IMG/VR virus record: IMGVR_UViG_3300045988_139610
Length of the DNA: 64,000 bases
Direction: 5' to 3' (one strand)
Source of the DNA: a virus
Shown here: one piece after another, positions 805 through 56,892 of the stretch
Layout: each line of letters opens with the position of its first letter
Numbering within the stretch: the stretch's first letter is position 1
Program-made: the position numbers and the translations under genes
Notes under the pieces: model-generated
The model's database searches: none
What the model was told of the DNA's origin: nothing
Seen by the model: only the letters and a program-made list of their open reading frames with translations

Positions 805-849
805 TTTCTATACTTATATATTAACGGATAGTATAAAGAAATTACCTAT
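805..849 (-). promoter_or_regulatory. class-B phage promoter/leader (ATAGGTAAT-N15-GTTAATA...), degenerate copy
   Basis: Sense strand GATAGGTAATTTCTTTATACTATCCGTTAATATATAAGTATAGAAAGGACGTGAT, with the same N15 spacing as the other copies. Confidence 0.5.
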
Positions 850-874
850 CCGTCATAAAATTTATTAATTATTT

Positions 875-1612
875 TTATTTAGTACCCGACGAACCAATCC
901 CACTCTTTCTAATTATATTACAATTATCTTCATCTGCTAATAAATATTTCTTGAATATCCCTTGCAAAATTCTTTCTCCTGCTTTTAATTCTACTGTTTT
1001 ATCTGTTAAATTTTTAAATTTAAGCCCTATATTCCCATCATTATCTGGATTACCATAATAATCACTATCTATAATTCCACATGTATTTACTAACATTAAT
1101 CCTTTTTTAAATCCAATGATACTTCTAGGTACTATTTCCAAATATTCATTATATAACATATATGCTTTGATATCTGTTTGTATTGCTTCGGATATACCAT
1201 GAGGTGGTATTTTAATATCTATTGGAGTTGATATATCATATCCTGCTGATTCACTAGTGGCACGTGTAGGTATTCTTATATCTACATTTGGATGTTTTCT
1301 AAATTCATCAGACACAATTTCAAATCCCCTTACCTTTTGTGAGACACTTTCCTCTATTTTTAATGTATTTGTTGTATAATCTACACCTAATATTTTAATT
1401 TCTGATTCATTTACTAATTCTAACGCATCTCCATACCAAAAATAATCAACATCGTTTAACACATAACATTTACCAAAGATAGCATTATAACGTATATCTA
1501 TTATTTCAAATTCCTTCCCTCTATATTTTAACATCTCTGGAATTATATCATGAAAATTATATTCATTTAAATCCTCTCTTATTCTTACTTTATCACCTAT
1601 ATTAAAATTCAT
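875..1612 (-). CDS. dut: dUTPase with an extra ~75-aa N-terminal domain
   Basis: Trimeric dUTPase motifs AGYDIS, IVPRS, GIIDSDYYG and C-terminal RKSGIGSSG. The N-terminal part FNIGDKVRI...FWYGDALELV is shared with ORFs 2155..2664 and 179..409. Confidence 0.85.
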   Translation of the reverse strand: MNFNIGDKVRIREDLNEYNFHDIIPEMLKYRGKEFEIIDIRYNAIFGKCYVLNDVDYFWYGDALELVNESEIKILGVDYTTNTLKIEESVSQKVRGFEIVSDEFRKHPNVDIRIPTRATSESAGYDISTPIDIKIPPHGISEAIQTDIKAYMLYNEYLEIVPRSIIGFKKGLMLVNTCGIIDSDYYGNPDNDGNIGLKFKNLTDKTVELKAGERILQGIFKKYLLADEDNCNIIRKSGIGSSGTK

Positions 1613-1629
1613 ATTACATCTCTCCTTTA

Positions 1630-2127
1630 TTAATAATTTATATATTTTAACACATCTAAATCATTCATTAATATACCTATATTTTTGAACTCTTTATACG
1701 GTATACTTTTACGCTTGTTATTTTCTTTAAACTTTTTGATTGCTAGCCCACTCACCAAATACACTTCTTTAAATTCTCTAAATTCTATTATAAAGAATAC
1801 ATTATTTGCATAGTTTTGAATCTCATCAATTAAATCGTATTGATAGTCTTTTATATTTGAAAGAGGAAATGAAGTTTTATTAGCTGTTGTTTTAGCCTCA
1901 AATACTATGCTTTTTCCATTAGGTAATATACCTATGTAATCTAGACAAGGTGATTGTTTCTTAGGAAAAGCCGATATAATTTTAGCTCCTTTTCTTAATA
2001 CAGTAAATTCAGTTGGAATCTTAAATATATAAGCCTTTCCTTCTTTTCTATATTTTTCAAATTGTTTTGTTAATCTATTTTCAAATTTAGCACCTATTTT
2101 ATTACTTTTATTTGGTATAAGAATCAC
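1630..2127 (-). CDS. recU: RecU-type Holliday junction resolvase
   Basis: LDYIGIL..IVFEAKTTANKTSFPLSNIKDYQYDLI closely parallels the recalled B. subtilis RecU core [22 protein letters not shown]. Confidence 0.8.
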   Translation of the reverse strand: MILIPNKSNKIGAKFENRLTKQFEKYRKEGKAYIFKIPTEFTVLRKGAKIISAFPKKQSPCLDYIGILPNGKSIVFEAKTTANKTSFPLSNIKDYQYDLIDEIQNYANNVFFIIEFREFKEVYLVSGLAIKKFKENNKRKSIPYKEFKNIGILMNDLDVLKYINY

Positions 2128-2154
2128 TTCCTTTCTTTTTAGATTATTAAAAAC

Positions 2155-2664
2155 TTATTTATTTTTGTCTTGCAATTTTTTAAGTCTTTCTATCTCTCTA
2201 TTTAAATACCAAAATCCTTTTTGAAGGTCTTCGAGTTCTTTATTTGGGTCTTTTTTTCCTGCTCGGGACACATATTTTATTACGTTTCCTCTAGCAAAAT
2301 TTAATTGTTTATCTTCTATAAAATCCATAACTTCTATGTTGCCATCTGTATAATGTGATGGATGATTAACAACATCATCTTCAATTTCTTTAGATATTTC
2401 AGAATCTTTCAAATCTGATTCATTTACTTTGTTCTCTTCTATTTTCGTATTCATATTATCATTCTCTTTTATTAATTCTAATACATTTTCTGACCAATCC
2501 CAGACTTGTTCATCTATATCTAACTTTATTATACCTTTACCAAAAGTACTTGTTACAATTGCCTCTTTATCTACAAACCCTTCCATATAACAATTACATC
2601 CAAATTCGCATTTACTCAAATCTCCTTTTATTCTAACTTTATCACCAACATTAAATTTGTTCAT
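2155..2664 (-). CDS. DUF3310 (SaV-like) protein with the shared N-terminal GDKVRI domain
   Basis: C-terminal HPSHYTDGNIEVMDFIEDKQLNFARGNVIKYVSRAGKK..EDLQKGFWYL matches the recalled DUF3310 pattern. The N-terminus FNVGDKVRIKGDL...VWDWSENVLELI is the shared domain. Confidence 0.6.
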   Translation of the reverse strand: MNKFNVGDKVRIKGDLSKCEFGCNCYMEGFVDKEAIVTSTFGKGIIKLDIDEQVWDWSENVLELIKENDNMNTKIEENKVNESDLKDSEISKEIEDDVVNHPSHYTDGNIEVMDFIEDKQLNFARGNVIKYVSRAGKKDPNKELEDLQKGFWYLNREIERLKKLQDKNK

Positions 2665-2734
2665 TAAATATCATCTCCTTAAAATTTGTTATTTTTATTA
2701 ATATTTTATTTAGAGTATATTTTATCACCTCCTT

Positions 2735-2778
2735 CCTTATATTACTGTATTAGCGTTAGTTATTTAAAAATTACCTAT
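2735..2778 (-). promoter_or_regulatory. class-B phage promoter/leader
   Basis: Sense AATAGGTAATTTTTAAATAACTAACGCTAATACAGTAATATAAGGAAGGAGGTGAT. Confidence 0.6.
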
Positions 2779-2796
2779 TCACCACAAATTTATTAA

Positions 2797-2970
2797 TTAT
2801 TTTCCGTATTCATCATTAATAAATTTAAAAATTGATATTATATCACATAAACATTCAGCCCCAGAACAGCTACGCATATTACATGTTTCGTCAAAGATAC
2901 AATCTTTACATTTTACAGTCCTTAATGCTTCATACAAACTATCTAAAGCTAAATTGAAATCGTCTCCCAT
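2797..2970 (-). CDS. small Cys-rich protein (57 aa)
   Basis: Hand translation MGDDFNLALDSLYEALRTVKCKDCIFDETCNMRSCSGAECLCDIISIFKFINDEYGK. The stop lies inside the 17-mer. Confidence 0.5.
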   Translation of the reverse strand: MGDDFNLALDSLYEALRTVKCKDCIFDETCNMRSCSGAECLCDIISIFKFINDEYGK

Positions 2971-2984
2971 AACATACCTCCTAT

Positions 2985-3218
2985 TTATTCTTCGTTTAAA
3001 TCTTTCATTATAAATAAACTGTTATTATCATTATCTGAAATTATTACATATCTACCTTCATTATTTATATTTATATTAGATGATAATTTGATATATTTTC
3101 CTGTTTGTAATGCATTAATATATAATTCACCTGTCATACTATCAAAATCCAAACTAACTCTCTCTCCTATCACTTCTTGTAAGTGATTTATTTTTGAATC
3201 TATGAATAACATTACCAT
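2985..3218 (-). CDS. hypothetical protein
   Basis: ORF in the co-directional array with AAGGAG upstream. No recognisable motif. Confidence 0.45.
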   Translation of the reverse strand: MVMLFIDSKINHLQEVIGERVSLDFDSMTGELYINALQTGKYIKLSSNININNEGRYVIISDNDNNSLFIMKDLNEE

Positions 3219-3615: not shown

Positions 3616-3660
3616 CCTTATATTATTGTATTAACATGACTTACTTAAAAATTACCTATG
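3616..3660 (-). promoter_or_regulatory. class-B phage promoter/leader
   Basis: Sense CATAGGTAATTTTTAAGTAAGTCATGTTAATACAATAATATAAGGAAGGAGGTGAT. Confidence 0.6.
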
Positions 3661-4305: not shown

Positions 4306-7300
4306 CTAACATTTTGAGAATCCACATTTACATTGTAAACAAGACCCCACAGTTGATAATTCTTCACCACACTCTGGACATTTATGATATCTACTTGCAA
4401 ATGCAGTTTCTCCATATTCTTTTATATAATCTAAATCTTCTTTAGTTAATGCGTTTTCTTCGATTTCTTTTTGCTTATCATGATTGTAATAATTTAAATC
4501 TACTAATTCTTTTAATACTTCTTCTTGTAAATCATTTTCTACATCAAGCAAACAATATAATATTGATGCACCACAGCTATTTCCTTTTGAAACTTCTATA
4601 CCTTTGCCTTTGGCTCTAACATAACTAGGACAAGTTCCAGCACCCTTAAATGATTTTTCTAATGATTTTAAATTACCTCCTATTCTTAAATCATGACTCA
4701 TTGCTATAGCTAAATTTTGTATCCCTAAAGCACATCCACCTTTAGATGAATTGGTAACATAAAAATCAAATATTCTCTTTTCTGTAGGTATAATTCCTAT
4801 ATGTAAAGTCATAGAACCACAACCACTTTTTATTTTTCTACGAATTTCAATTATTGATTCTGGTCTTTTTTCCCATTCACCTCTTAATAATTGTTCCTTT
4901 TCTTTATTATCTTTTTCGTTATCTATTGTTAATATACCTTTTCTTATTTCATTAGGTCTAAATATAGTACAACCACTTATACCATTTTTCCAACATTTAG
5001 TGTAAACATCTTTAGTATCTTCAAATGAATATTCAGTAGGAATATTAATTGTTTTACTACAACTCATATCAACATGATAAGACACTGTGCTTAATATGTT
5101 AACGTGGTCATCAACTGATAATTCCATAGCTGTAACAAATTTATTTTTATCAACTATATTTTCTTCAGAATTAAATTCTAACCATTTTTCATAAACATAG
5201 TCTCTCATTTTAAAAATTTCTATATTTTCGTCGTCCTGCCCACCTATTTTTATTTGTCTGTCATATTCTAAACTAAATATAGGTTCTAATGAAGAAGAAC
5301 AGTTATTACCATATGAAAGAGAAAGAGTCCCAGCAGGAGCTACACTTATCAATCTCCCATTACGTATACCATAAAATAAAATTTTATCTTTTATTTTTTC
5401 CCATTCTGGATATTTTTCAATATGTTTTCTTATAAAATTACTTTCAACGAATTTATTTTTGTCTAAAAAATTAAATGAACCTTTTTCTTTGGCTAAATCA
5501 CAGCTTGTATCGTAAGCATTTAAAGATATAAAATTCATCAATTCATCTGTAAATTTTATCGATTCTTCACTCCCGTATCTCATATTTAACATTGCAAACG
5601 TATCGGCTAATCCTGTTATTCCTAAACCAATAGTTCTTATATTTTTTTGATAATTTTCAAATTGTTTTAAAGGATAATTGTTAATATCTATTATATTATC
5701 CAACATTCTAACTGCGACGTTTATAACCTTTTGTAATTTATCGTAATCCATTTTCGCATCTTTTGTAAATGGGGCAATTACAAAATTGTGTAAAAATAAA
5801 CTCCCTAAATTACAAGCACCCATATAATCTTTTTTAATTCCTTCATCGTCATATAATATTCCACTAATATATTCAGCACAGTTATGTGCAACATATCCTT
5901 CTATTATGCCCCAATGATTTTTAGGTTCTGTAAAATCATATACTAATTTTTTACCATTATCTTTAATACTTCTTACATAAGGTACTCTTGATTTTATTAA
6001 TTTATTAAGTTTTATTTTTTTATAAGTTTGATAAAACCCTATAAATTGTGCAAATATTAATATGTCATCATATTTATTTATATTTACATCATAACTTTCT
6101 CTACATTCATATTCTCCATTTTTAAATTCTACCATATGTTTTTTATTTATTGTTAAATTTGCTGTTATTCCAAAATCTTTTTCTAAGGTATTTATAAGTT
6201 CTGTGGCAAATTCTTTACAAGTTGTTTTATAACTTACCCTTTTATTTGAATTAACACACCCATTGGCTGAAAAACAACCTTGTAAAAAGTTTGCCTTTTG
6301 ATTTAAATCCCATTCATTATAAGCTTTAGGCATTGCTCTATTTGGTAAAATTTCTTGTGAGAATTGAAATTTTTTCAGTAAATCATTATATCCTTGTAAA
6401 TATATTTCTCTATATGATTTCACAGTATACTTGTCATTTTCAAATAGATATCTTACGTCACCATCTTTCTCACCTATATTAACTTCAATGCCTTCATGTG
6501 ATTCACTATTTAATCTACTTAACTGTCCATCACCTTGTATAAATCCTAATTTAATATATAAATCGTCATCTTTGATTGTTTTATATATTTTTGGCATAAT
6601 TTTTTTACTTTTTAAATCTTTAGCTTTACATTCTTCTCCGTCTATTGTCATAAATCTATGGTCTGGAGTACAAGTTATTTCTTTTCCATTTGAAAATTTT
6701 AATTTAATTGTATCTTTTTCTCCATTACACCATACTTTTCCTTTTGTTATCTCACCGTCATAACTATAAATTAAAGGTTCTGTATTACATAATTCTTCCA
6801 ATGTTTTATAACCATCTTGTGTTAATAGTTTCATATCTCCTGTAAAACATGGGTTGGTAGTTACTATATTTTCCATGTAATAAAGATTGTTATTTTTATT
6901 CATGTTGTCATAATATAAAACTCCGTATTCACCTGTGTTATAAGCTTTTGTTATAATCAAATCCCACAGTTCTTTAGCATTAACTTCTTTTTTTGTTTTC
7001 CATTTTGACTCTTCATTAATTATTTCACCGTAATCACTCATACAAGGGTATCTTAAATATATTTTTTGATTATTTTCTACAGCCTTCATAAAATTATCAT
7101 CTACTAAAACTGATAAATTAAAATGAGTCAATCGTCCTTCGTCCCATGATTTTGATTCTAAAAAATCATATATATCTGGATGATAAATGCATAAACAACC
7201 CATATTAGCTCCTCTACGACTTCCTTGTAGGACGGTATGAGTTTGACTATCAAATGCATTCATAAAACTAACTACACCACTCGCTACAGCGTCATTTGAA

Positions 7301-7650
7301 GTAGGTGTACCGTTAGGTCTCAATAAACTAAAATTGTACCCTGTTCCTCCACCTGCTTTTTGTGTTATAGCACCGTATTTAACATAATCAAATATTCCTT
7401 CCATGGAATCTGGTACTAAATTTAAAGTAAAACAATTATTAAGAGTCAATGTTTTCCCTATACCAGAATTACTCATAGTTCTTCCAGCAGGATAAAATAA
7501 TCCTTCTAACATAATTTTTTTAAATTCTTCACATTCTTTTTCATTAGTACTCACATATTTTGCCACTCTTTCTATAGACTCATTGAAAGATTCATTGTTT
7601 TTTCTATATCTATCTTCCCATATTTGTTTTGAAATTAAATTAGTTATCAT
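4306..7650 (-). CDS. nrdJ: ribonucleotide reductase, class II (NrdJ)-like, carrying an intein
   Basis: N-terminal IWEDRYRKNNE..ERVAKYV and GGGTGYNFS. The active-site NPC(A)E motif is split by 323 aa. C-terminal CPECG..CLQCKC zinc ribbon. No NrdB-like gene in the window. The class assignment is less certain than the RNR call. Confidence 0.85.
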   Translation of the reverse strand: MITNLISKQIWEDRYRKNNESFNESIERVAKYVSTNEKECEEFKKIMLEGLFYPAGRTMSNSGIGKTLTLNNCFTLNLVPDSMEGIFDYVKYGAITQKAGGGTGYNFSLLRPNGTPTSNDAVASGVVSFMNAFDSQTHTVLQGSRRGANMGCLCIYHPDIYDFLESKSWDEGRLTHFNLSVLVDDNFMKAVENNQKIYLRYPCMSDYGEIINEESKWKTKKEVNAKELWDLIITKAYNTGEYGVLYYDNMNKNNNLYYMENIVTTNPCFTGDMKLLTQDGYKTLEELCNTEPLIYSYDGEITKGKVWCNGEKDTIKLKFSNGKEITCTPDHRFMTIDGEECKAKDLKSKKIMPKIYKTIKDDDLYIKLGFIQGDGQLSRLNSESHEGIEVNIGEKDGDVRYLFENDKYTVKSYREIYLQGYNDLLKKFQFSQEILPNRAMPKAYNEWDLNQKANFLQGCFSANGCVNSNKRVSYKTTCKEFATELINTLEKDFGITANLTINKKHMVEFKNGEYECRESYDVNINKYDDILIFAQFIGFYQTYKKIKLNKLIKSRVPYVRSIKDNGKKLVYDFTEPKNHWGIIEGYVAHNCAEYISGILYDDEGIKKDYMGACNLGSLFLHNFVIAPFTKDAKMDYDKLQKVINVAVRMLDNIIDINNYPLKQFENYQKNIRTIGLGITGLADTFAMLNMRYGSEESIKFTDELMNFISLNAYDTSCDLAKEKGSFNFLDKNKFVESNFIRKHIEKYPEWEKIKDKILFYGIRNGRLISVAPAGTLSLSYGNNCSSSLEPIFSLEYDRQIKIGGQDDENIEIFKMRDYVYEKWLEFNSEENIVDKNKFVTAMELSVDDHVNILSTVSYHVDMSCSKTINIPTEYSFEDTKDVYTKCWKNGISGCTIFRPNEIRKGILTIDNEKDNKEKEQLLRGEWEKRPESIIEIRRKIKSGCGSMTLHIGIIPTEKRIFDFYVTNSSKGGCALGIQNLAIAMSHDLRIGGNLKSLEKSFKGAGTCPSYVRAKGKGIEVSKGNSCGASILYCLLDVENDLQEEVLKELVDLNYYNHDKQKEIEENALTKEDLDYIKEYGETAFASRYHKCPECGEELSTVGSCLQCKCGFSKC
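5881..6849 (-). mobile_element. intein with LAGLIDADG homing endonuclease domain inside the RNR gene
   Basis: Starts with Cys (CFTGDMKLL, codon 268) and ends ..GYVAHN, followed by +1 Cys (CAEY). LAGLIDADG blocks LGFIQGDGQ and FLQGCFSANGC. Confidence 0.8.
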
Positions 7651-7675
7651 ATAACCACTCCTTTATTAATTATTT

Positions 7676-8443
7676 TTAATCTGTTATTTCAACTTCATAA
7701 GAATACATACCGTCATATAGCCTTTTAGGTATTAAGTCAAAGTAATAATCTGCTACTTCTTTAATATTCTTTTCTTTATAATATTTATATATTTCAAATC
7801 CTTTCTTTTGAGTTTCATAATAGCCTAAATATTCACATTTCGATTTTCCTGTTTCTGGATTAATCATATTACAACGTATTACATATTTACCATTTACAGG
7901 AGTTGTTCCTATCAGAGAATCACCTCTTGATTTATCACATTTAGTAAATAAACTATTGATTGTATGTGGCACAAAAATACAAGTTTCTGGACTATAAATT
8001 TTATTACCTTTAACTAATATATCTTTGTCCAAATGCATCCTTTCCCCTTCTACTTCATAATAATTTTCATAATACCATTTAGCGAAATTCTGAAAGTTAT
8101 GCCATTCATCACAAACTTCGCATCCAATGTAAGTCGGATTTCTTTTATGGAATTTATCAGAATAACATCTTTTTAGCATATCGTGCCAAACATCATAACA
8201 TTTTGTAGCCTTACTATTTTTACTTACTTTATATTTACCTTCCCCTAAATACCCCACTCCATATATACTTCTCTCATAAGGACATTTTATTTCACCTTTT
8301 TTAAAATTTCTATATGCTTTATTTTTAACCGTCCAATCATATTGAGGAAAATAAACGTCTATATCTATAGCCTTCCTATAATTAATAATTATCATCTCAC
8401 TTCCGAAGTTATTTATATTCTTTTCACCAGTTCTATCATTCAT
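7676..8443 (-). CDS. free-standing homing-endonuclease-like protein with AP2-type C-terminal domain (paralog 1 of 4)
   Basis: Shares NINNFGSEM, CPYER, GVGYLGEGKYKVS, W..ML.RCY, LDKDILVKGNKIYSPETCI and GTTPVNGKY...LGYY.T...F..YK.YKE with 20481.., 24088.. and 54633... Confidence 0.55.
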   Translation of the reverse strand: MNDRTGEKNINNFGSEMIIINYRKAIDIDVYFPQYDWTVKNKAYRNFKKGEIKCPYERSIYGVGYLGEGKYKVSKNSKATKCYDVWHDMLKRCYSDKFHKRNPTYIGCEVCDEWHNFQNFAKWYYENYYEVEGERMHLDKDILVKGNKIYSPETCIFVPHTINSLFTKCDKSRGDSLIGTTPVNGKYVIRCNMINPETGKSKCEYLGYYETQKKGFEIYKYYKEKNIKEVADYYFDLIPKRLYDGMYSYEVEITD

Positions 8444-8456: not shown

Positions 8457-8499
8457 TCATATTACTATATTAACAAAACTTTTATAAAAATTACCTATA
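8457..8499 (-). promoter_or_regulatory. class-B phage promoter/leader
   Basis: Sense TATAGGTAATTTTTATAAAAGTTTTGTTAATATAGTAATATGAAGGAGGTGATAATATG(gene start). Confidence 0.6.
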
Positions 8500-9372: not shown

Positions 9373-9417
9373 CCTTATATTTAATATATTAACAATTAAT
9401 GAGTAAAAATTACCTAT
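9373..9417 (-). promoter_or_regulatory. class-B phage promoter/leader
   Basis: Sense CATAGGTAATTTTTACTCATTAATTGTTAATATATTAAATATAAGGGGTGAT. Confidence 0.6.
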
Positions 9418-9419
9418 GA

Positions 9420-9638
9420 ATTTGAATTTTTATTATTGTCACTTTGAATTTATGAATGTAATGAATAAATGAAAAAGTGAAGAGGAAAGAGTTTAATCGG
9501 TTTTAAATTAAACTCTTGACGAATAGCTCCCTATATAATACTTTTTTATAAGAGATAACTATTTTTAATATTGAAATATCATAATTTTATCGTATTATTT
9601 TAAAAGTGTATTTTTAATTTTGTTGCTTTTTATCTTAA
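9420..9638 (-). repeat. conserved non-coding element E1 downstream of SF2 helicase-like gene (partner E2 at 59121..59361)
   Basis: Blocks shared with E2: TTTATCGTATTATTTTA (9586-9602), TATAAGAGA, GAATAGCTC (9521-9529). 11-bp perfect hairpin at 9487-9517. Confidence 0.6.
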
Positions 9639-12520: not shown

Positions 12521-12563
12521 CTTATATTACAGTATTAACATAACTTACTTAAAAATTACCTAT
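12521..12563 (-). promoter_or_regulatory. class-B phage promoter/leader
   Basis: Sense CATAGGTAATTTTTAAGTAAGTTATGTTAATACTGTAATATAAG. Confidence 0.55.
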
Positions 12564-16383: not shown

Positions 16384-16427
16384 CTTATATTACTATATTA
16401 ACTAAAGTTATTTAAAAATTACCTATG
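16384..16427 (-). promoter_or_regulatory. class-B phage promoter/leader with ATG-TAA start-stop unit
   Basis: Sense CATAGGTAATTTTTAAATAACTTTAGTTAATATAGTAATATAAGGAGGCGATAAAAATGTAA (ATG 16369-16371, TAA 16366-16368). Confidence 0.6.
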
Positions 16428-16429
16428 AT

Positions 16430-19556: not shown

Positions 19557-19600
19557 CTTATATTAGTGTATTAACATTAGTACACAGAAAATTACCTATA
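19557..19600 (-). promoter_or_regulatory. class-B phage promoter/leader
   Basis: Sense TATAGGTAATTTTCTGTGTACTAATGTTAATACACTAATATAAGGAGGGGAAGACAGATG(dnaE start). Confidence 0.6.
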
Positions 19601-20456: not shown

Positions 20457-20480
20457 ACAATCACTCCTTATTAATTATTT

Positions 20481-21260
20481 TTAGTCAGTTATTTCAACTT
20501 TATAAATATATAACGCTTGATATAATTCACTTGGTATTTTTCTTTTGAAGTAATCTGCAACTTCTTTTATGTTTCTCTCTTTGTAGTATTTATATATCTG
20601 AAATGCTTCCAACTCCGTATCATAATAACCTAAATGTTCTTGTTTTGATTTTCCAGTTTTTGGATTAATTATACGACATAGCACTCTATATTTACCATTT
20701 ACAGGAGTTGTCCCTATAACTGATTTACCTCTTTTATTGTCATTTTTAGTAAATAAGCCGTTGATAGTTTGAGGTACATATATGCAAGTCTCTGGGGAGT
20801 ATATTTTATTCCCTTTAACTAAAATGTCTTTATCTAAACACATTACTTCGTTTTTAACTGTATAATAGTTCTCACTATCCCAACTTCCAAAGTTTTGAAA
20901 ATTATGGAATTCTTCTGATGCTTCACATCCTATATATGTCGGTTCTTTTCCTTGATATTTGTCATCATAACATCTTTGTAACATATTATACCAACTTTGA
21001 AATACTCTAGTTAATTTCCCATTTTCGCTTACTTTATATTCCCCTTCGCCTAAATAGCCTATTTCAAAATATCTTCTTTCATATGGGCATTTTATATTTC
21101 CCTTTTTAAAATTTTGATATTTTGCTCCTTTAAAAGTCCAATTATATTCTGGAAAATATACATCAATATCCATACATCCTCTATACTCGACTATAACCAT
21201 CTCACTACCAAAGTTATTTATATTTCTTTCTCCTATCCTATTAATTTGATTTCTTCCCAT
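20481..21260 (-). CDS. homing-endonuclease-like protein, AP2-type C-terminus (paralog 2 of 4)
   Basis: Same motif set as 7676..8443. GGAGG lies 9 nt before the ATG at 21258-21260 (MGRNQINRIGE), inside the primase 3' end. Confidence 0.55.
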   Translation of the reverse strand: MGRNQINRIGERNINNFGSEMVIVEYRGCMDIDVYFPEYNWTFKGAKYQNFKKGNIKCPYERRYFEIGYLGEGEYKVSENGKLTRVFQSWYNMLQRCYDDKYQGKEPTYIGCEASEEFHNFQNFGSWDSENYYTVKNEVMCLDKDILVKGNKIYSPETCIYVPQTINGLFTKNDNKRGKSVIGTTPVNGKYRVLCRIINPKTGKSKQEHLGYYDTELEAFQIYKYYKERNIKEVADYFKRKIPSELYQALYIYKVEITD

Positions 21261-21265
21261 ATTAA

Positions 21266-22279
21266 TCATCCTCCTATAATACATTCATCACAAAGTTTTT
21301 CAAATATTTCTTTCCCCTGGTCTGATGGAGATACTTTACTTCCTTTTTTCATATATTTATTTTCTTTATCAATCATTACTTTTATTTTTATATCTCGCAT
21401 AAAACAGCACGATTTAATAGTTTGAATATCTCGTTTTATAGCGTCTATTATTAAACCTTCGTCCATACACAAGACTATTTCTGAAACACCTAATTTTAAT
21501 AATTGTTCTACTTGAGTTATACTTATTTGGTTACCCCCTAATGCCGTAGTATTATGTACTCCGAAACTATCACATTGAAGCACAGATTTCTCTGCCTCGA
21601 AGATATATACCTCTTTACTTTCTTTGATGTATTCTTTATTCTGATATAGACCATAAAGATATTTGTGCTTAGGAAAAGGGATTAAAGGAAGGTATTTGAA
21701 ATTTGTTATTTCGTCTGAATCCAAATCTATACGACCCATGACTCCTATAATTTCTCCATGTTCATTATAATGAGGTATTGTAATGCGATTGTTCTCTTCA
21801 GAAAATCCTATATTAAATTTAACTTGACTCGAAGGTAATATACCGTCATCTGCGAAACGTTTAAACCATTTATAACCACTATTATATTCTTCTAAAACAC
21901 TTTCATCATAAGTCACTTCCTTTTCTTCATCTTCATAAGGTACATATAAGCTATCGAAGAAACCATCAAATAATACCTCTTCCTCTGGTTGATAATTACC
22001 TTCTATTTTCTTACCTAACATAGTTTGTGTTGTTTTTAATACTTCTCTATAGGTTAAACCTGTATGAGTAGCTATTAAACCGAATAAATCCCCATTATAA
22101 GACGTTGTAAAATCTGTAGCTGATAAATTATCATTTAATTTGATTCTACATCCACTAGGGTTATCTCCTCCTACTTTTGCACACCTAATCTCTTTATCTG
22201 TTATATTAATACTATGATAATTATAATAACTTAATATTTTTTCGATTTGTTCTGGATTATTTTTTAAATACTCTTTCAT
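21266..22279 (-). CDS. dnaG: DNA primase (Toprim domain)
   Basis: Toprim-like YIFEAEKSVLQ and LCMDEG. Sits directly downstream of dnaB. Ends with a genuine TGA stop (21266-21268). Confidence 0.65.
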   Translation of the reverse strand: MKEYLKNNPEQIEKILSYYNYHSINITDKEIRCAKVGGDNPSGCRIKLNDNLSATDFTTSYNGDLFGLIATHTGLTYREVLKTTQTMLGKKIEGNYQPEEEVLFDGFFDSLYVPYEDEEKEVTYDESVLEEYNSGYKWFKRFADDGILPSSQVKFNIGFSEENNRITIPHYNEHGEIIGVMGRIDLDSDEITNFKYLPLIPFPKHKYLYGLYQNKEYIKESKEVYIFEAEKSVLQCDSFGVHNTTALGGNQISITQVEQLLKLGVSEIVLCMDEGLIIDAIKRDIQTIKSCCFMRDIKIKVMIDKENKYMKKGSKVSPSDQGKEIFEKLCDECIIGG

Positions 22280-23922: not shown

Positions 23923-23966
23923 CTTATATTATCGTATTAACATTAATTCACTAAAAATTACCTATG
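23923..23966 (-). promoter_or_regulatory. class-B phage promoter/leader with 19-codon leader ORF overlapping the dnaB start
   Basis: Sense CATAGGTAATTTTTAGTGAATTAATGTTAATACGATAATATAAGGAAAGGAGTGATAGAAAATG. The leader ORF MYYNEGHKKLVEERGDVIC ends at a TAA overlapping the dnaB ATG. Confidence 0.55.
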
Positions 23967-24087: not shown

Positions 24088-24879
24088 TTAATCTGTTATT
24101 TCTACCTTATAATTGTATAATGTATCATATAATTTTCTTGGTATTAAATTTTTATAATATTCTGCAACCTCTTTAATATATTGTTCTTTGAATTCTTTAT
24201 AAACTTTAAATGCTTTTTGTGGTGTATCATACGACCCTAAATATTTTGTTTTACTTTTATTTTCTTCAAAATCATATATACTAAAACTTGCTTGAAATTT
24301 TTTATCTCGTTTATTATAATGTACGCCTATAGGATATTCCCCTCGTTTATTACCCCTTTTAGTAAATAATATATTTATATTATTGGGTACAAACACGCAA
24401 TTATCTGGTGAATATATTTTATTCCCTTTATTTAGAATATCTTTATCTAAACACATTTTTTCATTATCAACCTCATAATAATTATTATCATACCACTCTG
24501 CAAAATTCTGAAAACACAACCATTCTTCACAGACTTTGCAATTAATATATGTTGGACGTTTTTTATGAAGTTTATCATCGTAACATCTTTTTAGCATATC
24601 GTGCCAAACATCATAACATTTTGTATTTTTACAATTTTCACTTACTTTATATTTACCTTCCCCTATATAAGCAACACCATAAACTCTTCTCTCATATGGA
24701 CAACTAATTTTGCCTTTTTTGAAATTATCATATGATACATTCTTGGCAATCCAATTATATTCTGTGAAACAAACATCAATATCTCTATTCATTCTGTATC
24801 CCACTATTATCATCTTACTACCAAAGTTATTGTAACCAATTTCCCCAACTCTATCTATCTTACTCCCCATAACCATCAC
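24088..24879 (-). CDS. homing-endonuclease-like protein, AP2-type C-terminus (paralog 3 of 4)
   Basis: Same motif set: CPYERRVYGVAYIGEGKYKVS, WHDMLKRCY, LDKDILNKGNKIYSPDNC. Confidence 0.55.
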   Translation of the reverse strand: MMVMGSKIDRVGEIGYNNFGSKMIIVGYRMNRDIDVCFTEYNWIAKNVSYDNFKKGKISCPYERRVYGVAYIGEGKYKVSENCKNTKCYDVWHDMLKRCYDDKLHKKRPTYINCKVCEEWLCFQNFAEWYDNNYYEVDNEKMCLDKDILNKGNKIYSPDNCVFVPNNINILFTKRGNKRGEYPIGVHYNKRDKKFQASFSIYDFEENKSKTKYLGSYDTPQKAFKVYKEFKEQYIKEVAEYYKNLIPRKLYDTLYNYKVEITD

Positions 24880-30464: not shown

Positions 30465-30508
30465 CTTATATTATCGTATTAACAATTCTAACTTCAAAAT
30501 TACCTATG
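30465..30508 (-). promoter_or_regulatory. class-B phage promoter/leader with ATG-TAG start-stop unit
   Basis: Sense CATAGGTAATTTTGAAGTTAGAATTGTTAATACGATAATATAAGGGGTGATTAAAATGTAG (ATG 30451-30453). Confidence 0.6.
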
Positions 30509-33827: not shown

Positions 33828-33870
33828 TTATATTAGTATATTAACATAACCATATATAAAATTACCTATG
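33828..33870 (-). promoter_or_regulatory. class-B phage promoter/leader with ATG-TAA start-stop unit
   Basis: Sense CATAGGTAATTTTATATATGGTTATGTTAATATACTAATATAAGAGGTGATTAAAATGTAA (ATG 33813-33815). Confidence 0.6.
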
Positions 33871-39775: not shown

Positions 39776-39817
39776 CTTATTATAGTATTATCAAAACTGT
39801 TATTGAAATTACCTATA
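39776..39817 (-). promoter_or_regulatory. class-B phage promoter/leader with ATG-TAA start-stop unit
   Basis: Sense TATAGGTAATTTCAATAACAGTTTTGATAATACTATAATAAGAAGGTGATTAAAATGTAA (ATG 39761-39763). Confidence 0.55.
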
Positions 39818-43646: not shown

Positions 43647-43711
43647 ATTATATTCCTCCTTTATTAATTTATACTTATATATTAACATAAACTAATTAAA
43701 AATAACCCTTA

Positions 43712-44230: not shown

Positions 44231-44260
44231 ATTATACTATTTTTTTATTTATATTGTCAA
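44231..44260 (-). promoter_or_regulatory. class-A sigma-A-type promoter
   Basis: Sense TTGACA-N18-TATAAT. Confidence 0.6.
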
Positions 44261-45185: not shown

Positions 45186-45285
45186 ATCTTTCTCTCCTTT
45201 TCATTAATAATTTTCTTGCTCTATCCATTCTTTTTCTTCTTTATCCCATACCCTAAACTTTAAGTTTTTCATATTACCACCCTCC

Positions 45286-45328
45286 TTATATTACTATATT
45301 AACATTAGCGTCATAAAAATTACCTATG
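45286..45328 (-). promoter_or_regulatory. class-B phage promoter/leader
   Basis: Sense CATAGGTAATTTTTATGACGCTAATGTTAATATAGTAATATAAGGAGGGTGGTAATATG (22-codon ORF MKNLKFRVWDKEEKEWIEQENY). Confidence 0.6.
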
Positions 45329-45645: not shown

Positions 45646-46560
45646 CTACTTATATATTTTATTAGCTATATTTAATAAACCTTGTGCTTGTAAAGTTATA
45701 TCTTCAGATGATATTGTTTGTTGATATATCTTTTTCATTGTAGGTGATATAATTTTAGCTCCACCACCAATAATGAGAATATTTGAATTCTTGATGTTAT
45801 TTGCTTGCCCTTTTATTTCATTTACTAAATTAACTATAAATTTCTTAACTAACTCTTCTTTGTATTTGAAATCACCTACTAATAAAGATTCTTCATTATC
45901 AAATATTCTTTTTGTTTGTTCTAATGATAATGATAAATCATATGTTAAGTTAAGATATTCTCTACAAGAATTGTATAAATCAAACAATCCTAATCTTATA
46001 CTAAATCCATCTTTTAATTGCATTTTATTATCGTAGATTGTAATATCGCATGTATTCCCACCTATATCCACAACCATCGTGTCTACATTTTTATTTAATT
46101 TATTCATTATACCTTGTATAGATTTGATTGAATAAGACTCTGGAAGTATTGTAACATTCTCAATTACTATGCTTCTTTTAATCCCATTTATAATTATAGT
46201 CTTTTTATTATTCTTTTTAATATAATCTTCCATTTTATCTTTCTTTTTATATTGATTAACAGGACAACAAGTTACCAAATTGATATTGTTTTCCGTATCT
46301 TTTGTAGCATTTGCTATACAATAATAAAGTAATATTAAATAATTGTCTTTTTTATATTTTAAAAGTTCATTTTCATACTTTCCTTCACCAATTAAATAAC
46401 CCTCATCATCTATAGTGAATTTTTGATTTTGTGAAAAGTCATCTAAACCATTTTCGCATTGTTTAATTCTCGATTCACAAATACAACTCCCATTATTAGA
46501 TATAGCTATTGATGTTAAATTACCGATGTCTACTCCTATATTGATAATATTTTTACTCAT
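45646..46560 (-). CDS. parM: actin-like segregation ATPase (ParM/Alp family)
   Basis: Actin-fold motifs GVDIGNLTS, VVDIGGNTCD and IIGGGAKI. ATG at 46558-46560 follows GGAGAG. Confidence 0.7.
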   Translation of the reverse strand: MSKNIINIGVDIGNLTSIAISNNGSCICESRIKQCENGLDDFSQNQKFTIDDEGYLIGEGKYENELLKYKKDNYLILLYYCIANATKDTENNINLVTCCPVNQYKKKDKMEDYIKKNNKKTIIINGIKRSIVIENVTILPESYSIKSIQGIMNKLNKNVDTMVVDIGGNTCDITIYDNKMQLKDGFSIRLGLFDLYNSCREYLNLTYDLSLSLEQTKRIFDNEESLLVGDFKYKEELVKKFIVNLVNEIKGQANNIKNSNILIIGGGAKIISPTMKKIYQQTISSEDITLQAQGLLNIANKIYK

Positions 46561-47520: not shown

Positions 47521-47623
47521 AATATCTCCTCCTATTTTATTAATTATTTTTACTTAAACTTTCTAAATCTCCATAAAATTCCATCATATCATCCTCTCAA
47601 ACCTAGTAATATCAATTGTTCGT

Positions 47624-47680
47624 ATAAAAGTGTACCCGCTTTGCATGAAAGTGTACCTGCTTTACATAAAAGTGTACCCT
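47624..47680. repeat. three 21-bp direct repeats (iteron-like)
   Basis: AAAGTGTACC at 47627, 47648 and 47669. Units are ATAAAAGTGTACCCGCTTTGC, ATGAAAGTGTACCTGCTTTAC and ATAAAAGTGTACCCT... Confidence 0.8.
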
Positions 47681-47681
47681 A

Positions 47682-47710
47682 ATAAATAGATAAATATATA
47701 AATAGATAAA
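47682..47710. repeat. two ATAAATAGATAAA 13-mers in a pure A/T stretch (possible DNA-unwinding element)
   Basis: Copies at 47682-47694 and 47698-47710, adjacent to the iterons. Confidence 0.6.
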
Positions 47711-47720
47711 AAAATAAATA

Positions 47721-50540: not shown

Positions 50541-51116
50541 TTAATTATTTTTAATTTCTTTTATTATATCTTTAATTAAATTGATTTTTCTATTAATTGT
50601 CACACTACTTACATTTAATTTTTTAGATATATTTTTTTGCTTGTATCCATCCATTAACATATCCATAATTATATGTAATTCTTCTGCATTAATCTTATTA
50701 AATTTATTAATATTTCTTTTTTTTATTATACTATCAAATTCATTCATTAATTCTATATATTCGATATTTTGATATTCTAAATCTATTTTTCCTATAGTAT
50801 CTAATAGAGTAGTCTGTTCTTTATCATCGTCAGATATATTAACATCCATAGATATAAGCATATCTTTGTCTCTATAATAAGTGTTTCTTAAATAGACATT
50901 GTATGAATTGTATATAATTGCACAAATAAATTTTTTAATATCCCCTTTAGACTCATCAAATTTATTTCTAGATTCCCAAAGTTGTAGTAACGAATATTGA
51001 ATCATATCTTCTTTAATTTTGAAAAATCCATTATAATTTTTATTATATATCTTACCAGCTAATTCTAAAGATAAATTTACATATTCTGTATCACTTATCA
51101 TTGTTTTACTCATCAC
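50541..51116 (-). CDS. small sigma-70-family factor (regions 2 and 4 only), copy 1
   Basis: 191 aa. Region-2-like LLQLWESRNKFDESKGDIKKFICAIIYNSY. Region-4 HTH EELHIIMDMLMDGYKQKNISKKLNVSSVTINRKINLIK. Confidence 0.6.
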   Translation of the reverse strand: MMSKTMISDTEYVNLSLELAGKIYNKNYNGFFKIKEDMIQYSLLQLWESRNKFDESKGDIKKFICAIIYNSYNVYLRNTYYRDKDMLISMDVNISDDDKEQTTLLDTIGKIDLEYQNIEYIELMNEFDSIIKKRNINKFNKINAEELHIIMDMLMDGYKQKNISKKLNVSSVTINRKINLIKDIIKEIKNN

Positions 51117-51193: not shown

Positions 51194-51784
51194 TTATTCA
51201 TTATTTTTTATTTCTGTAATTATATCTTTTATTCTATTGACTTTCTTATTAACATTCGTACTGCTTACTCCTAACATTTTGCTGATTTCGCATTTATTAT
51301 AGCCTTCATATAGTTTATTAATTATAAAATGTAACTCATCCAAATCTATTTTTCTACTTGTATGTTTATTTCTCTCTTCAACTATATTATTAAATTTATT
51401 TATAAACTCTTGTTTTTCAATATTTTTATAGTTGATATCTTCTTTAAGAAAATGACTAATTAATTTATTATATTCCTTTCTACAATCCAGTAATGTATCA
51501 TTCATTGTATATATTCCTTCAGCAGAAATAACTTTACCTTTATTTTTATATACAAAGTCTCTCACATATTTTGTCATGCTCTTCCATGCAATAGCATTAA
51601 GATAAGTATTTAATGAAACATTTTTGCTTTCATCATATCTTTTTATGGCACTACACATTTGCATATAAGCATATGATTGCATATCGTCTTTAAATAGAGA
51701 GAATGTTTTAAATCGTTTATTCCATATTCCCTTTGTTATTTTTATCATCAATCTTCCTTGTTCTTCTGAAATTTTTTCTTTCAT
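51194..51784 (-). CDS. small sigma-70-family factor, copy 2 (tandem paralog)
   Basis: 196 aa with the same layout. HTH DELHFIINKLYEGYNKCEISKMLGVSSTNVNKKVNRIK. Confidence 0.6.
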   Translation of the reverse strand: MKEKISEEQGRLMIKITKGIWNKRFKTFSLFKDDMQSYAYMQMCSAIKRYDESKNVSLNTYLNAIAWKSMTKYVRDFVYKNKGKVISAEGIYTMNDTLLDCRKEYNKLISHFLKEDINYKNIEKQEFINKFNNIVEERNKHTSRKIDLDELHFIINKLYEGYNKCEISKMLGVSSTNVNKKVNRIKDIITEIKNNE

Positions 51785-51816: not shown

Positions 51817-51845
51817 ATCATATGAACTTACTTGCCAAAAGTCAA
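51817..51845 (-). promoter_or_regulatory. class-A sigma-A-type promoter of the sigma-factor gene
   Basis: Sense TTGACT-N17-TATGAT. Confidence 0.6.
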
Positions 51846-54576: not shown

Positions 54577-54606
54577 AGTATATCATAACCAAATTATCTT
54601 TGTCAA
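54577..54606 (-). promoter_or_regulatory. class-A sigma-A-type promoter
   Basis: Sense TTGACA-N18-TATACT. Confidence 0.6.
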
Positions 54607-54632
54607 TACTTTTTATTAATTATTTATAAAGT

Positions 54633-55409
54633 TTAATCATCTATTTCTACTTCATATTCATACATTGCATCATATAGCTTTTGTGGTATATGCTCTTTGT
54701 AATAATCTGCTACTTCTTTAATGTTACGTTCTTTATAATATTTATATACTTCAAATCCTTTTTCCTGTGTATCATATAATCCCAGGTATTTTAGTTTAGA
54801 TTTACCAGTGCTAGGGTTAAGTAATCTACAATGCACTATATATTTACCATTTACAGGAGTTGTACCTATAACTGATTCACCTCTTATATTATCGTTTTTG
54901 ATAAATAACTTGTTTATTGTTTGTGGTACATAAATACAAGTCTCTGGTGAATATATTTTGTTATGTTTAACTAAAATATCTTTATCAAGACACATTTGTT
55001 GCCCTTCTATTTGATAAAAATTATCTTTATTCCACATTCCGAAATTTTGAAAATTATGAAATTCTTCTGAAACGGTACAATTGATATAAGTAGGGTGTTT
55101 TTCATGGTATTTTCTATCATAACATCTTTGCATCATATTGTGCCAAACATTATAGATTCTAGTATTTTTACCATTTTCTCTTGCTTTATATTCCCCTTCT
55201 CCCAGATAACCAACTCCATATACGTTTCTCTCATAAGGGCAACTAATTTTACCATTTTTAAAATGGTCATATGTTACCCCTTTAGCAATCCAATCATACT
55301 CTGGAAAATATACATCAATATTCATACATCCATTATAGTCTACAATTACCATTTTGCTACCAAAATTATTTGTTCCCTCTTCTCTTGTTCTATTAATTTT
55401 AGTCGCCAT
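54633..55409 (-). CDS. homing-endonuclease-like protein, AP2-type C-terminus (paralog 4 of 4)
   Basis: Same motif set as 7676..8443. Confidence 0.55.
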   Translation of the reverse strand: MATKINRTREEGTNNFGSKMVIVDYNGCMNIDVYFPEYDWIAKGVTYDHFKNGKISCPYERNVYGVGYLGEGEYKARENGKNTRIYNVWHNMMQRCYDRKYHEKHPTYINCTVSEEFHNFQNFGMWNKDNFYQIEGQQMCLDKDILVKHNKIYSPETCIYVPQTINKLFIKNDNIRGESVIGTTPVNGKYIVHCRLLNPSTGKSKLKYLGLYDTQEKGFEVYKYYKERNIKEVADYYKEHIPQKLYDAMYEYEVEIDD

Positions 55410-55430
55410 AATATATCATCCCCTTATTAA

Positions 55431-55742
55431 TTATTTATAAATTTTATAATATGTAAGAAGGTCGTACATTCCCTTTGTTCCTCTTATAATAAACCACTTT
55501 TTAAATTGCTTCTTACTTATATGAGTATATATCTTTACACATTCTGAATCTGGTACATCCTCAAATATAACATTATTGAATAAGAAGTTTTTAAATGTTT
55601 CATAATCTGATTGATTATAAAGTGTATCTATTATCTTGCAATTTCTTTGTTGTTGAATTTTTATATTTCTAATTCTTTCTTTATTTTTTTCAATTATATT
55701 CCCACCTGCACAATTAATAGGTTCTATTATCATATTTATCAT
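55431..55742 (-). CDS. hypothetical protein
   Basis: ORF in the array. Confidence 0.45.
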   Translation of the reverse strand: MINMIIEPINCAGGNIIEKNKERIRNIKIQQQRNCKIIDTLYNQSDYETFKNFLFNNVIFEDVPDSECVKIYTHISKKQFKKWFIIRGTKGMYDLLTYYKIYK

Positions 55743-55809
55743 TCATCCCCCTTGTTTTTATTTTATATATATATTATATGATGTTTATTATAATTTATCA
55801 ACTGTTTTA

Positions 55810-55899
55810 TTAATTATTTTTATAATTAATTATGAATAATAAAAAGCCCATTGCCCCACCAACTAAACTTATAAACATAAATGCTAATACATATTTCAT
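55810..55899 (-). CDS. 29-aa hydrophobic micro-peptide
   Basis: AAAAGGGGTGATAAAT precedes the ATG. MKYVLAFMFISLVGGAMGFLLFIINYKNN ends in the 17-mer. Has its own class-A promoter. Confidence 0.4.
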   Translation of the reverse strand: MKYVLAFMFISLVGGAMGFLLFIINYKNN

Positions 55900-55920
55900 A
55901 TTTATCACCCCTTTTATATA

Positions 55921-55949
55921 ATAATAGTACATTTGGATATATTTGTCAA
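55921..55949 (-). promoter_or_regulatory. class-A sigma-A-type promoter
   Basis: Sense TTGACA-N17-TATTAT. Confidence 0.55.
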
Positions 55950-55960
55950 TAAGAATGAGC

Positions 55961-55988
55961 AAAAAAATAGACTAGATAATTCTAGTCT
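55961..55988 (-). terminator. rho-independent terminator
   Basis: Sense AGACTAGA-ATTA-TCTAGTCT followed by ATTTTTTT. Confidence 0.7.
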
Positions 55989-56014
55989 TTATATTATTAT
56001 TAATTATTTTTAGA

Positions 56015-56755
56015 TTATGCCAATTTCTTTAAATCCTCTTCTTCAAATTCTATTTCTAATAATTTACTTATCTCATACACACCTTTAGGTGAAAATTTTA
56101 ATTGTGAATAATTATGTTCATTATTACTTCCTACAATAAGTTTATACCATGATTTATCTACATCACTATAAGGTAACCAACTCGTTCCCTTTTTATATAT
56201 TATTTTATTTTCATTTAATATCTTGTTTAATTTTTGTGCTGATGACAATTTAAATAATTTAGCTACTTGCGTACTCGAATAACAACCATTTGAATTAAGA
56301 AAATCGTCAAACCAACTTGCCTTCTCGTCTCTTTGTTTTGACAGTTCGGCTCTTCGTCTTTCAATTTCAATTCTTTCTTCTTTAGTTAAATTTGGGTCTA
56401 ATGATTTCAATATCAATCTATCTAATTCAGAAACCTGCTCTTCTAGCGTATTTATATATTCAATCATTTTGGCTCTAACATAAACCGATTCACTAGCACA
56501 CATTTGCAATATACCATCTTTATTCATTTCATATGTAGGATATTCTTTACCTCTAGTATTTATATAAGTTGACTCCTTAAAATTTAGGAGTGAATCTTTT
56601 AACTTTAATTCTTGCAGAATATTAACTTCTTTTCTTATTTTAGTTAAGAAGTTATCTTCTCTCAACTCTTTTCTATTACCTTCCATTTTTCTTAATTCAT
56701 TAATTTTAGCACATAATTCTACGTGATTCATTTTACATTCTTTTAATTCTAACAT
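56015..56755 (-). CDS. antirepressor-like protein (Rha-like N-terminal part, KilAC-like C-terminal part)
   Basis: YEMNKDGILQMCAS.. and the C-terminal YSSTQVAKLFKLSSAQKLNKILNENKIIYKKGTSWLPY fit recalled patterns. Confidence 0.55.
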   Translation of the reverse strand: MLELKECKMNHVELCAKINELRKMEGNRKELREDNFLTKIRKEVNILQELKLKDSLLNFKESTYINTRGKEYPTYEMNKDGILQMCASESVYVRAKMIEYINTLEEQVSELDRLILKSLDPNLTKEERIEIERRRAELSKQRDEKASWFDDFLNSNGCYSSTQVAKLFKLSSAQKLNKILNENKIIYKKGTSWLPYSDVDKSWYKLIVGSNNEHNYSQLKFSPKGVYEISKLLEIEFEEEDLKKLA

Positions 56756-56849
56756 ATTATCATTCTCCTTTTTATTTATTATTTTTATTGATATTTCATT
56801 AACTTTATTAATTATTTTTTATCAACACTCAATTTACATCAACTCCTTT

Positions 56850-56892
56850 CTTATATTACTATATTAACAATTAGTATTGAAAAATTACCTAT
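56850..56892 (-). promoter_or_regulatory. class-B phage promoter/leader
   Basis: Sense TATAGGTAATTTTTCAATACTAATTGTTAATATAGTAATATAAGAAAGGAGTTGAT. Confidence 0.6.

Follow-up and report, generated by a model that had tools for sequence, protein, structure and literature searches.

A repeated two-box element of a human-gut phage-plasmid family is a putative phage-specific promoter class

The window analysed here, a stretch of 64,000 nucleotides (nt) from the virus record IMGVR_UViG_3300045988_139610 (IMG/VR), carries many intergenic copies of a two-box element that we call M1. The original prediction, made from the letters of the window, had read this element as a phage promoter with its leader. 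Our results suggested that M1 is indeed a phage-specific promoter class. This reading is well supported but indirect, because what stands behind it is position, orientation, the order of terminators and promoters, the conservation of boxes and spacing, and a geometry like that of sigma-A promoters. We infer from these observations the promoter role, the position of the start and the reading factor, and we consider it fairly probable that M1 is read by a sigma factor encoded by the phage itself, most probably the protein called sigma-a here.

Results

Copies and geometry of M1

The core of M1 is 31 bases long (ATAGGTAAT-N15-GTTAATA) and lies on the minus, coding strand. Twelve copies in the window are exact, two have one mismatch in the second box, and one degenerate copy, predicted to lie near 60655-60700, was found at 60699 with one mismatch in the first box (ATAAGTAAT). 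The higher coordinate of each entry in Table 1 is the 5' end, by which the copies are named below. The original prediction had counted fourteen clear copies in one shared orientation. Fourteen were found, all of them co-oriented, and the positions by which they had been listed (805, 2735 and so on) proved to be the low plus-strand ends with the leader included, the motif itself reading on the minus strand.

None of 100 dinucleotide shuffles reached the observed number of copies, when up to 3 mismatches were allowed. A position weight matrix of 44 nt was built from the 14 clear copies and scanned over both strands. The 14 strong copies scored 29-55 bits, the copy at 60699 scored 26 bits, and a weak variant at 43710 scored 20 bits; no further site reached 12 bits on either strand of the window. 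The maximum over 50 shuffles was 13.9 bits.

The invariant 15-nt spacer that had been described between the 9-mer and the 7-mer was present in all 16 copies. Within the core, cATAGGTAATTT and TGTTAATA are separated by 12 variable nt. The consensus of 175 unique copies from the whole family runs c-ATAGGTAATTT, 12 variable nt, TGTTAATA, Y-A-n, TAATATAA and a G-rich Shine-Dalgarno sequence (SD). Conservation per position among these copies is 92-100% in c-ATAGGTAATTT and 93-100% in TGTTAATA, and the length of the spacer is fixed.

Copy 849 contains a 7-bp inverted repeat (CGGATAG ... CTATCCG, 819-854) across the first box and the spacer, which is kept in relatives. It could be an operator or a hairpin peculiar to that copy.

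Position, orientation and conservation

All M1 copies are intergenic and co-oriented with the genes. The window has 25% G+C and a strong, uniform strand skew, and practically every gene is on the minus strand. In relatives, 12 copies lie on one strand across the non-structural arm. Another 3, on the opposite strand, open the other arm and point towards YpsA, a 395-amino-acid (aa) helix-turn-helix (HTH) protein, terminase and the structural genes; these copies are inverted together with their genes. The structural block of the relatives (~46 kb) has no M1 save beside inserted genes. Terminator-like hairpins were found at six places on the coding strand of the window. Behind three of the six, M1 comes within 100 nt (within 42 nt in two cases); behind three, a sigma-A-type promoter comes within 50 nt, and one of these promoters precedes the M1 of its hairpin. 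For one hairpin neither is listed.

The site behind the terminator at 56930 was compared among orthologous sites of ten genomes chosen through sigma-a. Pairwise identity was 0.98-1.00 in the boxes, 0.48 in the 12-nt spacer and 0.46 in the upstream flank. The boxes are kept while the spacer drifts, which suggests selection on both boxes and on their distance, and not on the sequence between them. This pattern indicates that M1 is a bipartite site read by a protein. An RNA-level explanation of M1 was also considered and dropped, since RNAalifold gave 0 pairs and Rfam gave 0 hits for M1. M1 has the features of bipartite promoters of the sigma-70 family, namely two boxes, a fixed spacing with free spacer sequence, and a place upstream of transcription units with which it is co-oriented.

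M1 might instead be primarily something other than a promoter, such as a repressor operator, a protein-binding boundary, or a homology block for swapping gene cassettes or homing-endonuclease genes. What follows M1 and its SD at orthologous sites does vary among relatives (yopX, an HNH gene, nothing, or a bare ATG-stop), and M1 accompanies inserted genes within the structural arm. However, the strict co-orientation with genes, the fixed distance to the SD, the sites behind terminators and a two-box geometry identical to that of sigma-A promoters are what a promoter would be expected to have, and a role in shuffling would add to a promoter function rather than replace it. We regard a non-promoter role as very improbable. 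Because the content behind orthologous copies differs, our comparison suggests that the M1 cassette also marks points of gene exchange.

Distribution of M1 and its source genomes

Identical versions of the window proteins are encoded by a 133,615-bp human-gut metagenome contig (ERZ916593 k127_3831). In an exact-pattern scan of IMG/VR, the motif occurred many times per contig in viral contigs of 125-141 kb, and true copies were confined to one family of phage-plasmids of 125-141 kb. Single pattern matches in viral contigs of higher G+C were rejected as chance matches, the downstream module being absent there. Among 185,579 representative bacterial genomes, the pattern was present only in two small contigs of one 'uncultured Firmicutes' metagenome-assembled genome (MAG). 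Relatives of sigma-a were found in none of these genomes, nor among PLSDB plasmids or GenBank phages; like the true M1 copies, they occur only in this phage family.

The family looks like one of temperate phage-plasmids, because a Rep_3 initiator with iterons is present in relatives and the window carries a ParM-like gene (45646-46560) and integrase-like genes (one of them at 60709-61614). A megablast search with 8 kb found no match among GenBank phages. By DNA polymerase III alpha, the closest GenBank relative is Clostridioides phage pCD1602_4, with 64% amino-acid identity. Its whole genome was searched, and neither M1 nor a homologue of sigma-a or sigma-b was found; its sole strand-skewed 10-mer is a coding tandem repeat.

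M1 boxes and sigma-A

Promoters of the sigma-A type (TTGACA-N16-18-TATAAT) co-exist with M1 in the window, which agreed with the original prediction of textbook TTGACA/TATAAT promoters there, and M1 has the same geometry as these promoters. The first box had been described as unlike TTGACA, and AGGTAA in fact matches it at 2 of 6 positions. When TTAATA is taken as the -10 box, it is without A-11 and T-7; when TAATAY is taken, position -7 is C in 53% of the 175 copies. By this comparison, the M1 boxes misfit sigma-A in either register. A class that joins GTTAATA to another -35 box was not found beyond the variant at 43710, and the search for a late-promoter motif yielded none that could be defined.

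Host sigma-A could still be the reader if it used an extended -10 element (TG-T-TAATAY) and if a phage activator or a sigma appropriator bound the ATAGGTAATTT box, in the manner of T4 middle promoters. Consistently, TG precedes the second box in 93% of the family copies, the sigma-A-type promoters of the phage often have TGn, and the distance from TG to the SD is equal in both classes. But the frequent C at -7 of that register is poor for sigma-A, and the register is off by 1 nt as judged by the shared downstream module. Moreover, no protein like MotA or AsiA was identified, although no search aimed at them was made, and two phage sigma genes provide a simpler reader. We therefore judge a sigma-A and activator system unlikely.

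Two phage sigma factors as candidate readers

Two sigma-like open reading frames (ORFs) had been proposed as candidate readers of M1, and family models showed that both are real sigma-70-family proteins. Sigma-a matched the NCBIfam sigma-70 model TIGR02937 with 43.5 bits (cutoff 42.9) and the PHROG sigma factor family with 4e-13. The values for sigma-b were 37.1 bits, which is below the cutoff of 42.9, and 7e-8. The best PDB sequence match of the sigma-a profile was sigma-H. The structure model of sigma-a is all-helical and has two blocks. In the fold comparison, a B. subtilis SigH model ranked first (probability 0.99) and ECF sigmas came next, with E-values of 9e-3 or weaker and TM-scores of ~0.3. 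Nearly all of its top 40 PDB fold matches were sigma factors, and a few were TFIIB.

As candidate readers, the two proteins turned out not to be equivalent. The relatives of sigma-a are at least 63% identical, and no member of the family departs from its helices in region 2 (IIYNSY) and region 4.2 (VTINRKIN). In contrast, the sigma-b slot is a mosaic (51194-51784 in the window; relatives L115 and L117-L128), with 39-100% identity and with 2-3 region-2 alleles and 2 region-4 alleles, and this variation occurs among genomes whose M1 boxes are identical. Since the DNA-reading helices of sigma-a are as invariant as M1 is, whereas the sigma-b slot is a mosaic, sigma-a is the favoured reader on the ground of co-conservation within one clade.

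The types of region 2 and region 4 in the sigma-b slot combine differently among otherwise similar genomes, and no matching promoter class was found. No intergenic sequences near terminase were found to co-vary with the sigma-b allele types. The combinations suggest domain swapping between sigma-b alleles.

M1 might also be read by a phage factor other than sigma-a. Sigma-b is a bona fide paralog that adjoins sigma-a, and in relatives the 395-aa protein, which has an HTH of the sigma region-4/GerE type, is encoded downstream of M1 copies. However, the region-2 and region-4 alleles of sigma-b differ while the M1 boxes are identical, and the 395-aa protein is itself behind M1 and so could not start the cascade. 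That one of these proteins takes the place of sigma-a is, in our estimation, a slim chance.

A further candidate is a sigma-H-type alternative sigma factor of the host, which would need no phage factor and would tie expression to the transition state of the host. The sigma-H consensus in Bacillus and Clostridia has a -35 element RNAGGAWWW and a -10 element RNNGAATWW, 11-12 nt apart (PMC8510167). The first box of M1 (ATAGGTAAT) fits this -35 consensus at 8 of 9 positions. The -10 consensus and the distance are not found in M1, and the motif occurs only in a phage family that encodes sigma-H-like sigmas itself, being absent from the representative bacterial genomes save the two contigs of the single MAG. 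A host sigma-H as the reader is quite improbable.

Several points weigh against the reading of M1 by sigma-a. The function of M1 is predicted from sequence, in an uncultured phage known only from metagenomes. M1 and sigma-a co-occur within a single clade, which amounts to one phylogenetic event with one negative outgroup (pCD1602_4) and is weak evidence. The structural support for sigma-a is soft, with a pLDDT of 71.5 and a best fold E-value of 9e-3. The second box of M1 (TGTTAATAY) is without the GAAT of sigma-H promoters, and its distance from the first box, 14 nt in the best register, is 2-3 nt longer than theirs. The T before the invariant G, seen in 93% of copies, makes it possible that sigma-A uses an extended -10 (TGn) with an activator on the upstream box, and other phage factors, such as the 395-aa protein of the relatives, could act as well. 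Finally, sigma-dependent promoters are not usually conserved as far as the predicted start region, as M1 is; we explain this here by a leader that M1 shares with other promoters.

The shared leader, its Shine-Dalgarno sequence and the start-stops

The original prediction held that the conserved part runs on through the SD. Such a module is present, with TAATATAAGG exact in 8 M1 copies, but it is less uniform than was described and it belongs to a shared leader. The downstream half (TAATATAAGGAGGTGAT) is also carried by sigma-A-type promoters of the phage, and the same module lies behind those at 44260, 49759, 53303 and 39888. Past the second box, M1 and the sigma-A-type promoters alike have 3 nt and then TAATATAAGG or TAAGTATAAGG, and the SD lies 10-12 nt from that box, or 10-11 nt in the sigma-A-type class. 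Because the same module stands behind sigma-A-type promoters, the class-specific part of M1 is the two upstream boxes, and the rest is a shared leader. The SD of this leader would pair fully with the Firmicute 16S 3' tail.

A real start codon follows right past the SD in 7 copies of the window, including those of DNA polymerase III alpha, the HNH gene ahead of ribonucleotide reductase, Dcm and small ORFs. In 5-6 other copies, as in 45 of the 175 unique copies of the family, there is just an ATG-TAA or ATG-TAG past the SD. These minimal ORFs behind a perfect SD lie at 16371-16358, 30453-30448, 33815-33810, 39763-39758, 56839-56834 and 9368-9363. They are conserved at orthologous sites in relatives, and a full gene fills the same slot in one relative. 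After the start-stop comes a leader of 50-70 nt with a second SD and then a gene; the genes so placed include the Sak4-like gene, the 376-aa ORF, two antirepressor-like genes and the 117-aa ORF.

Where a gene follows directly, translation of the first gene would start at this SD. Where there is only ATG-stop, the SD (AAGGAGGTGAT) probably does no more than keep a ribosome on the 5' end of the RNA, which, speculatively, resembles a STAB-SD stabiliser. STAB-SD sequences and ribosome-protected 5' ends are known in Bacillus (PMC4113751, PMC5737220). The likeness is that M1 has a perfect SD near the predicted 5' end which opens no real ORF in 5-6 copies. That such orphan SDs act as STAB-SD-like stabilisers is a speculation by analogy.

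Genes behind M1

The M1 copies and the two sigma genes are collected in Table 1. The original prediction assigned the element to replication and nucleotide-metabolism operons. Such genes are included, but the set is broader: M1 also heads two antirepressor-like genes, homing endonucleases and small unknown ORFs, and in relatives it heads the packaging and structural arm. The yopX-like ORF behind copy 45327 (45207-45272) has 22 codons here, versus an intact 118 aa in relative L115. At the site of the degenerate copy 60699, relatives have an intact box with an HNH gene behind it.

Table 1. Copies of the M1 core and the sigma gene region in the window. All entries are on the minus strand.
Feature	Position (strand)	Description or what lies downstream
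M1 core	819..849 (-)	leader TATAAGTATAGAAAGGACGTGAT up to ATG 792, 58-aa ORF
M1 core, second box GCTAATA	2748..2778 (-)	SD without start codon; 84-nt leader, then DUF3310 gene (start 2664)
M1 core	3629..3659 (-)	SD, then TTG 3599 of 112-aa ORF
M1 core	8468..8498 (-)	SD, ATG 8443 (HNH homing endonuclease), then ribonucleotide reductase gene 4306-7650
M1 core	9387..9417 (-)	SD, ATG-TAA overlapping TTG start 9361 (154-aa ORF); ~250-nt conserved non-coding element precedes
M1 core	12533..12563 (-)	93 nt past terminator, just past sigma-A-type promoter; SD displaced; ATG 12492 (C5 DNA methylase, Dcm), then thymidine kinase
M1 core	16396..16426 (-)	SD, two ATG-TAA start-stops, leader, ATG 16317 (117-aa ORF)
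M1 core	19569..19599 (-)	SD, then ATG 19543 (DNA polymerase III alpha)
M1 core	23935..23965 (-)	SD, 19-codon ORF (start 23905), then DnaB-like helicase (start 23852)
M1 core	30477..30507 (-)	SD, ATG-TAG, leader, AAA_24 (Sak4-like) gene (start 30378)
M1 core	33839..33869 (-)	SD, ATG-TAA, leader, 376-aa ORF (start 33748)
M1 core, second box GATAATA	39786..39816 (-)	directly behind sigma-A-type promoter and 5-codon ORF; SD, ATG-TAA, then antirepressor-like gene (start 39699/39690)
Weak variant AAGGGTTAT-N15-GTTAATA	43680..43710 (-)	upstream of 150-aa ORF (start 43646); kept in relatives
M1 core	45297..45327 (-)	42 nt past terminator 45388-45369; SD, truncated yopX-like ORF
Sigma-a	50541..51116 (-)	191 aa, two-domain sigma-70-family protein (sigma-H/ECF-like)
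Sigma-b	51194..51784 (-)	196 aa, sigma-a paralog, 37% identity
Sigma-A-type promoter TTGACT-N17-TATGAT	51817..51845 (-)	ahead of the sigma-b/sigma-a gene pair
M1 core	56862..56892 (-)	12 nt past terminator 56930-56904; SD, ATG-TAA, leader, Rha/KilAC antirepressor-like gene (start 56755)
Degenerate M1 (ATAAGTAAT, without TAATATAAGG)	60669..60699 (-)	160-nt leader with hairpin, then phrog_2467 paralog (start 60537)

Other elements of the genome

A second short motif, AATAATTAATAA (usually AAAAATAATTAATAAA), has 53 copies on the coding strand of the whole window and 0 on the other strand, against ~0.8 expected; examples on the minus strand are 7663-7674, 20468-20479 and 62330-62341. It is found in nearly every intergenic junction. 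There, 23 copies abut an SD, 13 precede a sigma-A -35 box by 4-6 nt, and 4 lie just ahead of M1. Relatives (L117-L128) have it at the same density (~1 per kb) and with the same strand lock, and it is rare in the structural arm. Candidate roles are those of an UP-element, a translational enhancer or a stoperator-like protein site. About 700 bp beyond the low end of the window, in a stretch of the same contig (L131 12306-20738), the gene orientation flips, and the lysis and tail-fibre-like genes there are convergent with the non-structural arm; this stretch has no M1 and almost no AATAATTAATAA.

A conserved non-coding element of ~250 nt with an internal hairpin lies at 9418-9638 and at 59100-59361, downstream of each phrog_2467/YonV_C paralog, and it also lies upstream of an opposite-arm M1 in a relative (L008 7330-7560). 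No Rfam match was found for it. At 47521-47720, upstream of a Bro-N gene and not far from the ParM-like gene, there are three direct repeats of ~20 nt (GGTACACTTTyATryAAAGC) that resemble iterons or a centromere.

The window has four HNH homing-endonuclease genes that are paralogs, with 68-77% DNA identity (7676-8443, 20481-21284, 24088-24879 and 54633-55409). M1 is directly upstream of 7676-8443, and a sigma-A-type promoter is upstream of 24088-24879. An intein that carries a LAGLIDADG domain splits the gene of the ribonucleotide reductase large subunit. At 30684-31997 the phage has an inserted gene for an ISL3-family transposase, and the local G+C rises to 0.31 there. In the structural arm of a relative (L133 17385-17981), a G+C-rich non-coding gap of 600 nt within the structural genes looks like a group I intron candidate.

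Discussion

The mechanism that we propose would begin with host RNA polymerase carrying sigma-A, which would transcribe an early operon with the two sigma-H/ECF-like genes; this early timing is suggested by the sigma-A-type promoter at 51845. A phage sigma factor, most probably sigma-a, would then bring the host core polymerase to M1. Its region 4 would read AGGTAAT as the -35 box and its region 2 would read GTTAATA as the -10 box, 16-17 bp apart. Transcription would start ~6-9 nt downstream of GTTAATA, inside TAATATAAGG, and the RNA would begin a few bases before the perfect SD.

Ever since SPO1 and T4, phages have been known to encode sigma factors with promoters of their own. In the sigma cascade of the Bacillus phage SPO1, gp28 serves the middle genes and gp33/gp34 serve the late genes. 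An outline of the SPO1-type cascade is available (PMC13401047). The present scheme is alike in that early genes depend on sigma-A, small phage sigmas redirect the host core, and a private two-box promoter stands before many genes. The sequences of the boxes are unrelated, and SPO1 is a virulent myovirus, whereas the present element is a temperate-looking phage-plasmid. T4 middle promoters combine a MotA box (at -30) with a sigma-70 -10 element, and sigma is appropriated by MotA/AsiA. M1 similarly has a phage-specific upstream box in the -35 place and keeps an A/T-rich element like a -10 box, but by inspection there is no MotA-box sequence in M1, and phage sigma genes are present here.

Sigma-H proteins are the nearest to sigma-a among its solved or modelled relatives, which adds to the likeness seen in the first box. 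Another comparison is with the group-5 sigmas TcdR, BotR, TetR and UviA of clostridial toxin and bacteriocin genes, which recognise a -35 element TTTACA and a -10 element GTTATA or GTTAAT and have an SRQ motif in region 4.2 (PMC4031146). Like the present pair, these sigmas are small (~180-190 aa), AT-rich clostridial proteins borne on mobile elements. The -10 GTTAAT of M1, with its conserved initial G, is identical to the BotR-type element. The -35 boxes differ (AGGTAAT versus TTTACA), region 4.2 of sigma-a and sigma-b has VTINRK and TNVNKK and no SRQ, and no family-level hidden Markov model match was seen. String searches of the literature for the motifs returned only unrelated primers, and in the literature searched we found no description of these box sequences, of a promoter that combines a -35 box like that of sigma-H with a -10 box like that of BotR, or of this sigma family.

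The PeSL 'mobile regulatory cassettes' of T4-type phages, reportedly described by Arbiol et al. in 2010, are said to be early sigma-70 promoters with a stem-loop. They resemble M1 as repeated promoter-bearing cassettes beside variable genes, with content that varies behind orthologous cassettes. M1 differs in having no stem-loop and in boxes that are not those of sigma-A. A wider idea, which we offer tentatively and hold to be rather doubtful, is that M1 with its SD and start-stop is a portable expression cassette that marks insertion slots for homing-endonuclease genes and accessory ORFs. Exchange through short homology would then drive modular shuffling, the orphan SDs would stabilise 5' ends, and the cassette and the strand-locked AATAATTAATAA would jointly serve as a 'punctuation' of the non-structural arm that is peculiar to the family.

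In conclusion, what is new here is the sequence of the boxes and the sigma family, while the proposed control scheme itself is ordinary phage gene control. It involves no new principle and would work like the classic phage sigma cascades. M1 matches are usable as a specific marker of this phage family in metagenomes, and the pair of sigma-a and M1 is a candidate orthogonal expression switch for low-GC Firmicutes. For the widespread uncultured family of ~135 kb human-gut phage-plasmids, our results give a testable regulatory map, in which host sigma-A promoters would lead to the phage sigma genes, and these in turn to the M1 genes for replication, nucleotide metabolism, antirepressors, homing endonucleases and the head of the packaging arm.

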